Below are positions 3,983-13,965 of a stretch of 45,266 nt of DNA, one piece after another. The translations under genes and the position numbers were made by a program. Within the stretch, counting starts at the first letter, position 1; each line of letters opens with the position of its first letter. Source of the stretch: a virus (lineage: Duplodnaviria > Heunggongvirae > Uroviricota > Caudoviricetes); the IMG/VR virus record IMGVR_UViG_2531839130_000013. One strand, given 5' to 3'. A model generated the notes under the pieces. That model did not search any database, had not been told where the DNA came from, and saw nothing but the letters and a program-made list of their open reading frames with translations.

Positions 3983-4174
3983 TTAAAGACCTGCCGGGAT
4001 TTCGTTATTATCCTGGTGAATAACTTTATCGACCGGGTAACAGTTACCGGGAATTTTCTGTTCGGTTGCTGCAGTCATACATTCCTGCATTGTCCTGTGA
4101 ACACTGACTGCAATATCAACTGGCTCTCCGGAAACAAGATAAACTGTCAGAACAAGCGCAAATGCTGAATTCAT
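3983..4174 (-). CDS. ydfD: Small membrane protein, YdfD-like (Qin prophage lysis protein family)
   Basis: 63-aa product MNSAFALVLTVYLVSGEPVD... with N-terminal hydrophobic segment; its ATG overlaps the dicB stop (ATGA). Start chosen at the internal Met of the 81-aa track ORF. Assignment from memory of Qin prophage synteny. Confidence 0.45.
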   Translation of the reverse strand: MNSAFALVLTVYLVSGEPVDIAVSVHRTMQECMTAATEQKIPGNCYPVDKVIHQDNNEIPAGL

Positions 4175-4359
4175 TGTGCACATCCTTTTGGCATCAGACG
4201 TAAACGAGCCAGCATTGAAACAATGCATATTTTATTTAATAGCTCCCCTTCTTGTTTTCTCTTGTTAATGGCATCTTCAGTAAATACTGAGTTACTGATA
4301 GTGACACCAATTTCAAAACAACCTTCAGACGTATTAACGTTTGGTAATAACGTTTCCAT
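4171..4359 (-). CDS. dicB: Cell-division inhibitor DicB-like protein (62 aa)
   Basis: Internal Met of the 97-aa track ORF gives METLLPNVNTSEGCFEIGVTISN...LMPKGCAQ, 62 aa, matching my recollection of DicB almost residue for residue; GAGGA Shine-Dalgarno about 9 nt upstream; directly downstream of the DicF sRNA as in Qin. Confidence 0.6.
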   Translation of the reverse strand: METLLPNVNTSEGCFEIGVTISNSVFTEDAINKRKQEGELLNKICIVSMLARLRLMPKGCAQ

Positions 4360-4528
4360 TATCGCGTCCTCAACAATGAATTTTGTGATGCGGTGCCTGG
4401 TGCCTCCAGGTGACGTTAACCAGTTAACAATTAACGCCGGATACAGAGAACCCACCCATAACACTGTTTTTGGTTTTAACTGTTCCGCGTGCGCTTAGCC
4501 GCATTCACCGCATCACAAAATTCACTTT

Positions 4529-4586
4529 AAAAAGGGCGGCAGAGCAGTCACGGAGTAAAACTGATACCGCTAAACGCCACCAGAAA
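4529..4586 (-). ncRNA. dicF: DicF small RNA (ftsZ-targeting sRNA of Qin-type prophages)
   Basis: Reverse complement of 4534-4586 reads tttctggtggcgtttagcggtatcagttttactccgtgactgctctgccgccc, near-identical to the 53-nt DicF sequence as I recall it, followed by a U-tract on the minus strand. A perfect 9-bp stem (4612-4620 / 4640-4648) lies just upstream in transcript order. Confidence 0.7.
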
Positions 4587-6353: not shown

Positions 6354-6632
6354 TTAGGGAAACTGGCGTCTTGCGTGGATCACGTTTACTACTTCAACGC
6401 TTGATGTTGTTACGCGGTATAGAATTATATAGTTAGGGTGGGCTACAATCTCACGCAAGCCAGGTACTCTGTCGCTTGGTGGGTATAAATACGGATGTTC
6501 GGATAACGGCAGCACACAACCCCTTAATCGCTGCCATAAGCGTTCAGCCGCATCTATGTCGAAACGAGCAATATAACTAGTTATATCATCTAGGTCGGTA
6601 TCTGCGCTTTCAAGCCATAACACGGGTAACAT
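6354..6632 (-). CDS. parE: ParE/RelE-family type II toxin (about 92 aa)
   Basis: C-terminal region REIVAHPNYIILYRV...VEVVNVIHARRQFP is typical of the ParE/RelE fold; start placed at internal Met (MLPVLWLE...) abutting the antitoxin stop. Sizes (92 aa toxin, 63 aa antitoxin, upstream repressor) match the three-component PaaR-PaaA-ParE prophage modules of E. coli O157 as I recall them. Confidence 0.75.
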   Translation of the reverse strand: MLPVLWLESADTDLDDITSYIARFDIDAAERLWQRLRGCVLPLSEHPYLYPPSDRVPGLREIVAHPNYIILYRVTTSSVEVVNVIHARRQFP

Positions 6633-6633
6633 T

Positions 6634-6825
6634 TTACTGCTTGCTCCGTTCCTTGCGCATTTTAGCAAAGCGTTCTGCCATTCTGCGCTCAACTTCGTCA
6701 TGGGGAATTGCTGGGCGTGGATCTGCAAGGCTCGTTGCTACTTTTGCACGCAGCCATTCGTTGTAACTGTTTTCTTGTTCAATGGTTTCAAATTCAGAAA
6801 CCATTGGTGAAAGGGCTCTATTCAT
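6634..6825 (-). CDS. Antitoxin partner of the ParE-like toxin (63 aa, PaaA-like)
   Basis: Start MNRALSPMVSEF... preceded by GGAGGA SD; small acidic/basic protein immediately upstream of the toxin with near-adjacent stop/start. Confidence 0.6.
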   Translation of the reverse strand: MNRALSPMVSEFETIEQENSYNEWLRAKVATSLADPRPAIPHDEVERRMAERFAKMRKERSKQ

Positions 6826-7315: not shown

Positions 7316-7618
7316 ATGACATTAAAAGAGTTTATTAAATCATTGAGGGTTGGTGATGCTAAGAAATTCGCAGCCAGACTTGGTGTATCGCCATCTTACT
7401 TATCGCAAATGGCGTCTGGACGAGCAGCTATATCTCCAACACGCGCCCTTATGATCGAATCTGCGACGGAAGGCCAAGTAAGTAGGGCGGAGCTACGACC
7501 CCATGATTGGGAGCTTATTTGGCCTGAGTATGCGAGCGGCATTCGTTTGGGGCAAACACATGTAGTTCATGCTGAAGGTGATTGTAGTGCATGCTTATCT
7601 GATGGAGTTGATTCATGA
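7316..7618 (+). CDS. Cro-like HTH protein (YdaS-like)
   Basis: 100-aa ORF divergent from the repressor, GAGGAAGG SD; HTH-like FAARLGVSPSYLSQMASGRAAISPTRAL; position equivalent to cro. Confidence 0.65.
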   Translation: MTLKEFIKSLRVGDAKKFAARLGVSPSYLSQMASGRAAISPTRALMIESATEGQVSRAELRPHDWELIWPEYASGIRLGQTHVVHAEGDCSACLSDGVDS

Positions 7619-8040
7619 AAATCAAGCATGAACACATCCGCATGGCGATGAATGCCTGGGCGCATCCGGACGGTGAAAAAGTTCCGGCTGCGAAAATTAC
7701 CAAAGCGTATTTCGAGCTGGGAATGACGTTCCCGGAACTGTATAACGACAGCCATCCGGAAGCCCTGGCTCGCAATACTCAGAAAATTTTCCGCTGGGTG
7801 GAGAAAGACACCCCTGATGCGGTTAAAAAAATTCAGGCGTTGTTACCAGCTATCGAAAAAGCAATGCCGCCTCTGCTGGTGGCCCGAATGCGCAGCCACA
7901 GTTCAGCCTGGTTTCGGGAGCTGGTGGAGACGCGGGAACGGCTGGTGAGAGACGCTGATGATTTTGTCGCAGTGGCGATCGCTGGTTTCAACCAGATGAA
8001 TCGTGGTGGCCCTGCAGGAAATATTGTGGCTGTGCATTGA
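7615..8040 (+). CDS. YdaT-like protein (cII-position regulator / putative toxin family)
   Basis: 141-aa ORF starting MKIKHEHI..., overlapping the stop of the Cro-like gene; synteny and N-terminus resemble Rac prophage YdaT as I recall it. Confidence 0.5.
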   Translation: MKIKHEHIRMAMNAWAHPDGEKVPAAKITKAYFELGMTFPELYNDSHPEALARNTQKIFRWVEKDTPDAVKKIQALLPAIEKAMPPLLVARMRSHSSAWFRELVETRERLVRDADDFVAVAIAGFNQMNRGGPAGNIVAVH

Positions 8041-11395: not shown

Positions 11396-12082
11396 ATGAC
11401 CACAATAAATACGTTTATGACAGTTGCTGATTTCAAACGGCCTAAATTGGAGCTCCCAAACGGGGCAAACAAACTACTACTGCACTCTTGCTGTGCTCCA
11501 TGTTCCGGTGAAGTGATGGAGGCGCTTCAGGCCTCGGGAATCGACTACACCATCTTTTTCTACAACCCGAACATTCATCCTCAGAAAGAGTATTTAATTC
11601 GTAAGGATGAGAATATTCGCTTTGCTGAACAACACGGCGTGCAGTTTATCGATGCTGATTACGACACAGACAACTGGTTTGAACGTGCCAAAGGAATGGA
11701 ATGGGAGCCCGAGAGGGGGATCCGTTGTACCATGTGTTTTGACATGCGTTTTGAGCGGACAGCGTTGTACGCTGCTGAAAATGGTTTCAGTGTGATCAGC
11801 AGTTCGCTGGGCATTTCACGCTGGAAAAATATGCAGCAGGTTAACGACTGTGGGCGGCGAGCCGTCGCGCATTATCCGGGAATGGTGTACTGGGATTATA
11901 ACTGGCGCAAGCAGGGCGGCTCGTCCCGTATGATTGAAATCAGCAAGCGCGAAAAATTCTATCAGCAGGAATATTGTGGCTGTGTGTATTCTCTGCGCGA
12001 TACCAATCTACACCGCAAATCTCAGGGACGCCCTCTTATCAAAATTGGTCAACTCCACTACGGTAAAGAAGAGAAGGAGTGA
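11396..12082 (+). CDS. queH: QueH-like protein (DUF208, epoxyqueuosine reductase family)
   Basis: N-terminal [11 protein letters not shown] motif plus downstream conserved Cys (CTMCFD, YCGCV) match the signature of QueH/DUF208 as I recall it; stand-alone gene between replication genes and the hok locus. Confidence 0.6.
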
Positions 12083-12262
12083 TTTTATGGATCACCTTTC
12101 TGATTGATTTCATATTGGCGAGGTAGCAGGAGTTAAGTAGAATTGCTGCGGGTGCTTGAGGCTATCTGTCTCAGGCATGAACACCAAAAGGCAGATAGAG
12201 AAAAGCCCCAGTTAACATTACGCGTCCTGCAAGACGCTTAACATTAATCTGAGGCCATATCT

Positions 12263-12322
12263 ATGCGACACATAGAGATTAGCCTCTTACGGACCGAAAG
12301 GTCAAGGAGAAGCGGGCTATGA
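12263..12322 (+). CDS. Short leader ORF (19 codons) whose stop overlaps the hok ATG (mok-like coupling ORF)
   Basis: atgcgacacatagag... ends in TGA overlapping the hok ATG (cTATGAag); the leader region is rich in inverted repeats typical of hok mRNAs. Confidence 0.3.
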   Translation: MRHIEISLLRTERSRRSGL

Positions 12323-12474
12323 AGCAGCGAAAGGCGATGTTAATCGCCCTGATCGTCATCTGTTTAACCGTCATAGTGACGGCACTGGTAACGAGGAAAG
12401 ACCTCTGCGAGGTACGAATCCGAACCGGCCAGACGGAGGTCGCTGTCTTCACAGCTTACGAACCTGAGGAGTAA
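12319..12474 (+). CDS. hok: Hok/Gef-family type I toxin (51 aa), HokD/RelF-like
   Basis: Hand-translated: MKQRKAMLIALIVICLTVIVTALVTRKDLCEVRIRTGQTEVAVFTAYEPEE, essentially the Hok/RelF sequence; AAGGAGAAG SD upstream; below the size threshold of the ORF track. Confidence 0.85.
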   Translation: MKQRKAMLIALIVICLTVIVTALVTRKDLCEVRIRTGQTEVAVFTAYEPEE

Positions 12475-12544
12475 GAGACCTGGCGGGGGAGAAATCCCTC
12501 GCCACCTCTGATGTGTCAGGCATCCTCAATGCACCCGCACTTAA

Positions 12545-12569
12545 CCCGCTTCGGCGGGTTTTGTTTTTT
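12545..12569 (+). terminator. Intrinsic terminator downstream of hok
   Basis: cccgc-ttcg-gcggg stem-loop followed by an 11-nt T-rich run. Confidence 0.6.
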
Positions 12570-12641
12570 CTGAGCATCCTGGTTTACAATCCACATGCCA
12601 GCCTGAACAACTGGCACCTGCTGCGCCAGCAGAGAAAACAG

Positions 12642-12914
12642 ATGGCGCACAAGACCAAATTACACAATTCTGATACCGTTCGTGCCAGCAGGCACGGGCG
12701 GTGTTCGCACGCATTCAAATATGACTGGTATCAGCACGACCCCTGCACTGAAGAACAGGCCGAATGGCTGATTCATAACTACCGCAGACGTGGGTATGAG
12801 TTTAGGAAAGCCCTCAGCCTCGATTATCGTCACTGGATAATCTACGTCAGACTCCCTTATTCCGAACGCCCACCGCGTCCGTCCCGCACATTCCAGCAAC
12901 GCATCTGGAGGTAA
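12642..12914 (+). CDS. Hypothetical protein (90 aa), in the position of Qin rem
   Basis: Start set at MAHKTKLHN because the longer reading runs through the hok terminator; Cys/His-containing small protein; named by synteny only. Confidence 0.4.
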   Translation: MAHKTKLHNSDTVRASRHGRCSHAFKYDWYQHDPCTEEQAEWLIHNYRRRGYEFRKALSLDYRHWIIYVRLPYSERPPRPSRTFQQRIWR

Positions 12915-12915
12915 C

Positions 12916-13965
12916 GTGCGGGTATTACTTCGACCTGTTCTGGTGCCGGAACTTGGGGTGGTTATCGTTAAGCCAGGTCGTGAATCCATGCAGGTATTCC
13001 ATAACGGCAGAGTGCTGGTTGAACCGGAGCCAAAAAGCATGCGCGGTCTGCCGTCCGGGGTCGTTCCTGCCGTTCGCCAGCCGCTGGCGGAAGACAAATC
13101 TCTGCTGCCATTTTTCAGCGATGAGCGGGTGATTCGTGCTGCCGGCGGCGCTGGTGCACTGTCTGACTGGCTCCTGCGTCATGTTAAATCCTGCCAGTGG
13201 CCTCATGGTGACTACCATCACAGTGAAACCGTCATACATCGTTACGGTACCGGCGCGATGGTGCTGTGCTGGCACTGCGACAACCAGCTGCGTGACCAGA
13301 CATCCGAATCACTCGGGCAACTTGCTCATCAAAACCTGTCAGCATGGATGATTGACGTCATACGCCATGCAGTGAATGGCACGCAGGAGCGGGAATTATC
13401 GCTGGCTGAATTATCCTGGTGGGCGGTCCGCAATCAGGTGGCGGACGCGCTTCCGGAGGCAGTATTACGTCGTTCTCTGGGGTTACGTGCGGAAAAAATC
13501 CGCTCTGTGTACCGTGAAAGCGACATCATACCGGGAGAGCAGACAGCCACCAGCATACTGAAGCAGCGCACAAAAAATATTGTGCTACCGCCTCACGCCC
13601 ACCAGCAACAGAACCCACCACAGGAAAAGACGGTGGTCAGCATTGCCGTTGATCCGGAGTCTCCTGAATCTTTCATGAAGCGACCTAAACGTCGCCGCTG
13701 GGTTAACGAAAAGTACACGCGCTGGGTTAAGACACAGCCGTGTGCATGTTGTGGTAAGCCAGCCGACGATCCCCATCACCTGATTGGTCACGGTCAGGGA
13801 GGGATGGGGACAAAAGCCCACGATATTTTCACGCTACCGCTGTGCCGGGAGCATCACAATGAACTTCATGCTGATCCGCTGGCATTTGAAGAAAAGCATG
13901 GTTCCCAGATTGATTTAATTTTTCGTTTTCTTGATCACGCCTTTGCAACCGGCGTGCTCGGGTAA
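12916..13965 (+). CDS. DUF968-family protein with C-terminal HNH-like Cys/His motif (YdfU-like)
   Basis: GTG start with GGAGG SD; C-terminus CACCGKPADDPHHLIGHGQGGMGTKAHDIFTLPLCREHHNELH is HNH-like; 349 aa like Qin YdfU. Confidence 0.55.
   Translation: MRVLLRPVLVPELGVVIVKPGRESMQVFHNGRVLVEPEPKSMRGLPSGVVPAVRQPLAEDKSLLPFFSDERVIRAAGGAGALSDWLLRHVKSCQWPHGDYHHSETVIHRYGTGAMVLCWHCDNQLRDQTSESLGQLAHQNLSAWMIDVIRHAVNGTQERELSLAELSWWAVRNQVADALPEAVLRRSLGLRAEKIRSVYRESDIIPGEQTATSILKQRTKNIVLPPHAHQQQNPPQEKTVVSIAVDPESPESFMKRPKRRRWVNEKYTRWVKTQPCACCGKPADDPHHLIGHGQGGMGTKAHDIFTLPLCREHHNELHADPLAFEEKHGSQIDLIFRFLDHAFATGVLG

Follow-up and report, generated by a model that had tools for sequence, protein, structure and literature searches.

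The analysed window, a stretch of 45,266 nucleotides, looks like a Rac/Qin-type lambdoid prophage. The interval under study is intergenic and lies between the prophage queH gene (11396-12082) and the next phage gene (an ORF listed at 12513-12914). It was found to contain the toxin gene hok, a short mok leader ORF, the RNA elements of a hok mRNA and, at the sequence level, a sok gene on the opposite strand. The features of the module, in order of position, were the following.

12115-12143, plus strand: candidate promoter of the hok mRNA with the -35 hexamer TTGGCG (12115-12120), a 17 nt spacer and the -10 hexamer TAGAAT (12138-12143); 9/12 in the consensus scan
12148-12161, plus strand: tac element GCGGGTGCTTGAGG at the 5' end of the hok mRNA, paired with fbi in the fold
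12162-12198, plus strand: tac hairpin with the arms CTATCTGTCT (12162-12171) and AGGCAGATAG (12189-12198), from the Rfam structure line and the fold
12197-12270, minus strand: predicted Sok antisense RNA of about 74 nt with a 5' tail, a long hairpin (12256..12206) and a U-rich tail (12205..12197); both ends are predicted
12205-12211, plus strand: ucb-like anti-SD GCCCCAG, named by analogy with R1 (PMC9841398)
12251-12254, plus strand: mok Shine-Dalgarno GAGG, 9 nt upstream of the mok ORF and inside the Sok target region
12263-12322, plus strand: mok homologue in a short form of 19 codons (MRHIEISLLRTERSRRSGL), from the translation and from a position homologous to mok of R1-type and hokW-type loci
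12276-12305, minus strand: putative sok promoter with the -35 hexamer TTGACC (12305..12300), an 18 nt spacer containing the conserved GTAAGAGGC box and the -10 hexamer TAATCT (12281..12276)
12304-12309, plus strand: hok Shine-Dalgarno sequence AAGGAG, read directly and located within the invariant AGGAGAAG block of the alignment
12319-12474, plus strand: hok toxin gene of the HokD type, 51 codons plus stop, from the ORF list, PF01848 and the NCBI name HokD
12524-12538, plus strand: fbi element CCTCAATGCACCCGC, complementary to tac with one bulged T
12543-12570, plus strand: intrinsic terminator of the hok mRNA, AACCCGC TTCG GCGGGTT followed by a T-run, from the terminator scan and the fold hairpin

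The 51 codons of hok were intact in the given sequence, with no frameshift or stop in 12319-12474, and the product matched PF01848 (HOK_GEF) with 82.9 bits and E=1.2e-23 in the Pfam profile search (cut-off 22). The toxin shared 50 of its 51 residues (98%) with K-12-type HokD/RelF, the sole change being Q4R. The original prediction of a hok-family type I toxin essentially identical to Hok/RelF was thus borne out. The toxin belongs to the HokD (RelF) orthologue group, judged by its near-identity to the K-12 protein and by the location of its gene, which lies upstream of the DUF968 (ydfU) gene in both prophages. NCBI already lists the exact 51-aa sequence, found on 247 contigs, under the name 'type I toxin-antitoxin system toxin HokD [Escherichia coli]'. 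A cut-off on minimum length would account for the absence of hok from the original ORF track. The hok/sok locus is a known one with respect to its family, subgroup, exact protein sequence and genomic position. As a separate observation, the Tyr46 codon TAC (12457-12459) lies in a UUACGAA context (12456-12462) which resembles the TadA A-to-I editing motif. Editing at this motif has been reported to turn Tyr into Cys in mRNAs of the hok family, hokD being mentioned (bioRxiv 10.1101/2025.08.07.668861, Introduction).

The -10 hexamer of the candidate hok promoter was conserved in the four aligned lambdoid/prophage copies (the window, Rac442, HannyBb and Stx2 phage I) and the -35 region varied with the context. 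The predicted start of the hok mRNA at about 12148-12150 corresponds to position 1 of the Rfam model RF01794 and is homologous to the 5' end of the R1 hok mRNA, GGCGCUUGAGG. RF01794 matched 12150-12321 of the plus strand over the full model (1-157) with 105.5 bits and E=4e-23, the gathering score being 59. The full-length transcript of about 420 nt folded with -180.7 kcal/mol, resulting in a z-score of -8.0 against dinucleotide shuffles. The structured leader and the intrinsic terminator, both of which had been claimed earlier, were confirmed by this match and by the terminator stem at 12543-12560 that is followed by the T-run TTTGTTTTTT. The inverted repeats noted at that time correspond to the tac hairpin and to a small TCTATG/CATAGA hairpin which surrounds the mok AUG at 12260-12276.

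The pairing between tac and fbi comprised 14 bp with one bulge and an energy of -27.3 kcal/mol (RNAduplex), and both the MFE and the centroid structure of the complete transcript contained it. Among those relatives whose 5' end could be placed by the motif GYTTGAGG, the tac/fbi complementarity was usually found about 45-56 nt past the hok stop. This survey covers a part of the relatives, as the 5'-end motif was not matched in many Photorhabdus and Kluyvera copies. Compensatory changes were detected: GGGUGC/GCACCC is replaced by GGGCGC/GCGCCC in Photorhabdus and Pantoea, and the R1 type carries GGCGC with its 3' partner altered too. In the MFE structure of the full-length RNA, GCC.CAG of the ucb-like element (12205-12211) was paired with CUG.GGC of CUGAGGCC (12249-12256), i.e. 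with the mok SD region. The mok SD stayed paired with ucb also in the MFE of the 3'-truncated RNA (12150-12524), an MFE being a weak test of kinetic refolding.

The leader ORF was likewise described in the original prediction, and its length of 19 codons and a stop overlapping the hok ATG were both correct. Its start was corrected to 12263, and the ORF turned out to be a short-frame variant of mok and not an unrelated leader peptide. The TGA of mok (12320-12322) overlaps the ATG of hok (12319-12321) in the string CTATGA. Most relatives share a conserved GAGGC that precedes the mok ATG by 8-12 nt. The distance from the mok-like ATG to the hok ATG was 56, 57 or 58 nt in the 59 loci examined (L001-L059), so that all three frames are represented:

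58 nt, out of frame: a long Mok of 55-69 aa in the surveyed copies and 70 aa in R1; canonical R1 and Rac-type copies
57 nt, in frame: an ORF of 68-71 aa (extended Hok), named 'MokW' in several phage records; hokW type, most of the sampled copies
56 nt, mok stops at the hok ATG (AUGA): an ORF of 19 codons; the window

The form with 56 nt and 19 codons was also found in E. coli SK1144, E. ruysiae, E. whittamii, Erwinia and Kalamiella. The leader of E. coli SK1144 differed from that of the window by one substitution, and the 95-nt leader was matched in about 1000 complete-genome records at 95-99% identity. Two indels separate the window from the hokW-type copies: 2 nt are missing directly behind its mok ATG, and the hairpin further downstream contains one additional T.

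According to the mutagenesis of R1, the translation of mok is needed up to the hok start, and hok translation does not suffer from a mok stop located at that start or further downstream (PMC9841398). The short mok is therefore compatible with normal coupling, which in the window would most simply be achieved by termination-reinitiation at AUGA, although it could weaken the coupling relative to the long-mok relatives. A more far-reaching idea is that the 19-codon mok ending in AUGA is a selected minimal leader acting purely by termination-reinitiation, and that the switches between 56, 57 and 58 nt, including the in-frame form that would make a 70-aa, N-terminally extended Hok, are a tolerated or adaptive tuning of the Hok output. 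We regard this idea as tentative and rather doubtful. If it were true, natural variation would show Mok to be a dispensable peptide, and the threshold at which a hok module fires would differ from prophage to prophage. As an instance of natural variation, the changing mok frame is a minor data point in favour of the published view that mok has to be translated only as far as the hok start; it is worth a footnote and is not a finding in itself.

The presence of Sok had been left undecided in the original prediction. A homologous sok promoter was recognised in the window by alignment with the R1-type plasmid copy and with hokW-type phage copies, whereas a generic sigma-70 consensus scan of the minus strand called no sok promoter. 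The scan missed the site because its -10 hexamer TAATCT matches the consensus at only 3/6 positions and the spacer is 18 nt long. The miss was rejected as evidence for the absence of sok, since the -10 hexamer of sokW, TAACCT, also scores 3/6 and that of the R1 type, TATCCT, 4/6, the -35 hexamers are weak, and the site in the window is homologous to these. With such weak hexamers the thresholds of the generic scan would probably miss the known sok promoters as well. The position of the window promoter is homologous to TTGCGC-17-TATCCT of the R1-type plasmid copy and to TTGCCT-17-TAACCT of the hokW type. In the sokW study, the protection was lost when the promoter was mutated around the -10 region, and sokW supplied in trans restored it partly (PMC8621323, section 2.1, Fig. 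1E legend, primers YO-421/422).

The predicted Sok RNA folded with -32.2 kcal/mol and a z-score of -5.5, and the mok AUG and SD have their complement in its single-stranded 5' tail, which is about 14 nt long. The design of tail, hairpin and U-tract was observed in nine relatives, where the sequences of the inner stem varied and the pairing was kept. The sok promoter box, the 5' tail and the terminator hairpin were conserved in Escherichia, Kluyvera, Photorhabdus, Pantoea, Erwinia and the R1-type plasmid copy. At the level of sequence the sok gene is thus present on the minus strand, with its transcription and exact ends being predicted. The Rfam model RF01794, although named 'sok antitoxin', describes the sense strand of the hok leader, and its positions 1-157 end at the hok AUG. 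As the model matches the plus strand, the match marks the homology of the leader and not the expression of an antisense RNA, and it was not accepted as a proof of Sok.

One of the closest described counterparts of the module is hokW-sokW of Sakai prophage 5 and Stx phages (Takada et al. 2021, PMC8621323), a locus of lambdoid prophages with the same architecture as in the window. A published hokW-sokW primer, GCGGGTGCTTGAGGCTATCTGCCTCGGGCATGAACACC..., is near-identical to the 5' leader of the window from 12148, and HokW (L005) is 90% identical to the Hok of the window. The sok promoter box of the hokW type, TTGCCT-17-TAACCT, resembles TTGACC-18-TAATCT of the window, and the Sok hairpin and tac/fbi are homologous too. 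The two loci differ in the mok frame, since the mok ATG of the hokW type lies 57 nt upstream and in frame, giving the 70-aa 'MokW', whereas that of the window lies 56 nt upstream and its ORF stops at the hok start. In addition, the C-terminus is HokD-like in the window (FTAYEPEE) in contrast to FVDYESEK of the hokW type, and the upstream flanking genes are different, being queH in the window. HokW is toxic and is neutralised by sokW expressed from its own promoter, and the locus aids phage release (PMC8621323). When Sp5 is treated with mitomycin C, sokW falls and HokW rises in a RecA-dependent manner, and deletion of the locus halves the phage release (PMC8621323).

In the case of hokD (relF) of the K-12 Qin prophage, the toxin is identical at 50/51 positions and the hok SD, the 3' UTR, fbi and the terminator are the same as in the window. 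The downstream region, consisting of a small ORF and then the DUF968 protein YdfU, matches as well, except that the window lacks rem, which in K-12-like Qin separates hokD from the small ORF. In contrast to the window, which holds an intact module of the ancestral type, the K-12 hokD is truncated: relBE stands in place of everything upstream of about window position 12305, and its own promoter, tac, ucb, mok and sok are absent. It has been described that relBE integrated into a longer ancestral hokD locus (PMC6379469) and that relF is co-transcribed with relBE (PMC3598666).

The elements of R1 hok/sok (parB) were found in the window in the same order, i.e. promoter, tac, ucb, mok SD/AUG, sok, hok SD, hok, fbi and terminator. 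The comparison was based on a copy on an IncFII plasmid (L001, NZ_CP128973.1, 444-659), which we take to be of the R1 type, its Hok being 100% identical to the R1 Hok sequence used for the comparison. This copy and the window share the conserved boxes GCTTGAGGC, AGCCCC and GCCTCTTAC. The R1 Hok from the plasmid copy was about 44% identical to the Hok of the window in the tblastn alignment, and the Sok hairpin of the window is about 16 nt longer than that of R1 according to the Rfam alignment. R1 hok/sok belongs to a plasmid replicon and has a role in plasmid stabilisation, whereas the locus of the window belongs to a prophage. The mok of R1 has 70 codons in the +1 frame and a spacing of 58 nt (mok ATG 116-118, hok ATG 174-176; PMC9841398), compared to 19 codons and 56 nt in the window. 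In the plasmid copy itself the mok ATG lies 57 nt upstream and in frame, which is 1 nt shorter than the published R1 numbering. Within that copy PGAP annotates just the 33-codon 3' part of hok (558-659).

RNA-controlled hok/sok toxin modules of the hokD/hokW type sit in a large share of E. coli lambdoid prophages. A search of 5426 complete E. coli genomes with the 487-nt region of the window yielded matches in 4943, at a median of two places per genome, and in 3926 genomes at least 80% of the region was covered. The CDS under these matches is annotated as hokD by PGAP in thousands of genomes and the RNA elements are unannotated. The region was also present in 102 phage records, including Stx-converting phages, where the gene is called MokW, Hok, HokD or gef. 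K-12-like genomes matched from about window position 12305 onward only, with relB-relE directly upstream of hokD. E. coli-type hokD sequences, 95-98% identical, were in addition observed on contigs of 275-2995 nt assigned to Acinetobacter idrijaensis, Xanthomonas pisi and a Candidatus Scatousia MAG (L017, L026 and L058), and another one in an 'Actinobacillus phage' record (H64). These copies in odd taxa are likely due to assembly contamination or mislabelling.

On these grounds we consider it very likely that the locus is a real, complete and probably functional hok/sok module of the hokD/hokW type, located in the nin region of a Rac/Qin-like lambdoid prophage. Because its parts are completely conserved, the canonical hok/sok mechanism, which has been shown for R1 and in outline for hokW-sokW, is the best-supported model. 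By homology to R1 hok/sok and Sp5 hokW-sokW, a weak constitutive promoter would produce a hok mRNA of about 420 nt, which would be closed by the pairing of tac at the 5' end with fbi at the 3' end, while the ribosome-binding site of mok would stay paired with the upstream anti-SD. In this closed state the full-length RNA is proposed to be neither translated nor bound by Sok. Slow trimming of the 3' end would strip fbi, after which the 5' region would refold and expose the SD and AUG of mok. As long as the abundant and unstable Sok is present, it would pair with the mok start region and the duplex would be cut by RNase III. Once Sok has decayed, ribosomes would translate the 19 codons of mok, stop at the UGA overlapping the hok AUG, and thereby open and load the hok start. 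The 51-aa Hok would then insert into the inner membrane, and the cell would be depolarised or lysed. The transcription, instability and RNase III-dependent neutralisation by Sok have been shown for the relatives R1 and hokW-sokW (PMC8621323, PMC9841398).

Since the neighbouring early genes lie on the same strand and no terminator was found between queH and hok, read-through upon prophage induction could deliver hok RNA in excess of Sok. It is plausible that Sok is swamped in this way, which would agree with the role reported for hokW-sokW in faster lysis and phage release. Prophage addiction and the exclusion of other phages are also possible roles. In a recent survey, hok was enriched in prophages and its function was left open (bioRxiv 10.1101/2025.08.07.668861).

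The same two indels that distinguish the window from the hokW-type copies might instead mean that the locus is a decaying, non-functional chromosomal remnant, in which the 19-codon mok results from the frameshifting 2-nt deletion and 1-nt insertion, hok is uncoupled from mok and Hok is never made. Such decay would agree with the truncated state of hokD in K-12 and with the report that none of the chromosomal hok loci tested brought about post-segregational killing (bioRxiv 10.1101/2025.08.07.668861, Introduction). However, all the other hok/sok elements of the window are intact, and R1 mok stops placed at or beyond the hok start leave hok translation unimpaired (PMC9841398). The nearly unchanged leader of E. 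coli SK1144 and the roughly 1000 closely similar genome records speak against decay as well, and the recurrence of the 56-nt spacing with AUGA in the distant E. ruysiae, E. whittamii, Erwinia and Kalamiella argues that this form is tolerated or selected. A private frameshift lesion was rejected for the same reason, as both the allele and the spacing recur elsewhere. We therefore find a decaying remnant unlikely.

Far less probable is a hok gene devoid of Sok, expressed as the tail of an upstream operon by read-through from queH in the manner of the K-12 relB-relE-hokD (relF). The terminator scan found no terminator from the queH stop (12082) to hok, and the co-transcription of relF with relBE in K-12 (PMC3598666) offers a precedent. 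In contrast to the K-12-type copy, the window possesses tac, ucb, mok and the sok region together with a promoter-like site of its own, and the K-12-like arrangement was rejected by the alignment. Even more remote is a chance small ORF accompanied by fortuitous inverted repeats. Apart from the fact that ORFs of 51 codons are common by chance, nothing speaks for it, and it is already refuted by the E-values of the Pfam and Rfam matches (1.2e-23 and 4e-23), the z-score of -8.0 of the fold and the thousands of conserved copies.

The value of the locus lies mostly in its annotation, as a small toxin gene and an antisense RNA are easily missed, and the window copy represents the intact form of a module which K-12 carries only as a truncated relBE-hokD fusion. 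Other genes of the window that were assigned in the analysis were the following.

4171-4464, minus strand: DicB (PF05358)
4534-4585, minus strand: DicF RNA
6354-6728, minus strand: ParE-family toxin (PF05016)
7316-8040, plus strand: YdaS/YdaT-like proteins (regulators) of the early region
11396-12082, plus strand: queH, full-length epoxyqueuosine reductase QueH (PF02677, 220.9 bits), immediately upstream of hok/sok
12916-13965: DUF968 gene

The window further encodes DUF977, RusA, antiterminator Q and a DNA methylase in addition to QueH, DUF968 and two tRNA genes. The earlier suggestion that several growth-arrest functions are combined in one prophage is confirmed by the presence of ParE and DicB/DicF beside hok/sok, and the stacking of these functions is typical of Rac/Qin-like elements. 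The listed 133-aa ORF at 12513-12914 (plus strand) overlaps the hok terminator, and comparison with a homologous 92-aa protein of E. coli SK1144 places the probable start of this gene at the ATG at 12641. The two tRNA genes are located downstream, at 16957-17029 and 17130-17203, and the phage may carry tRNA-modification and tRNA cargo together.
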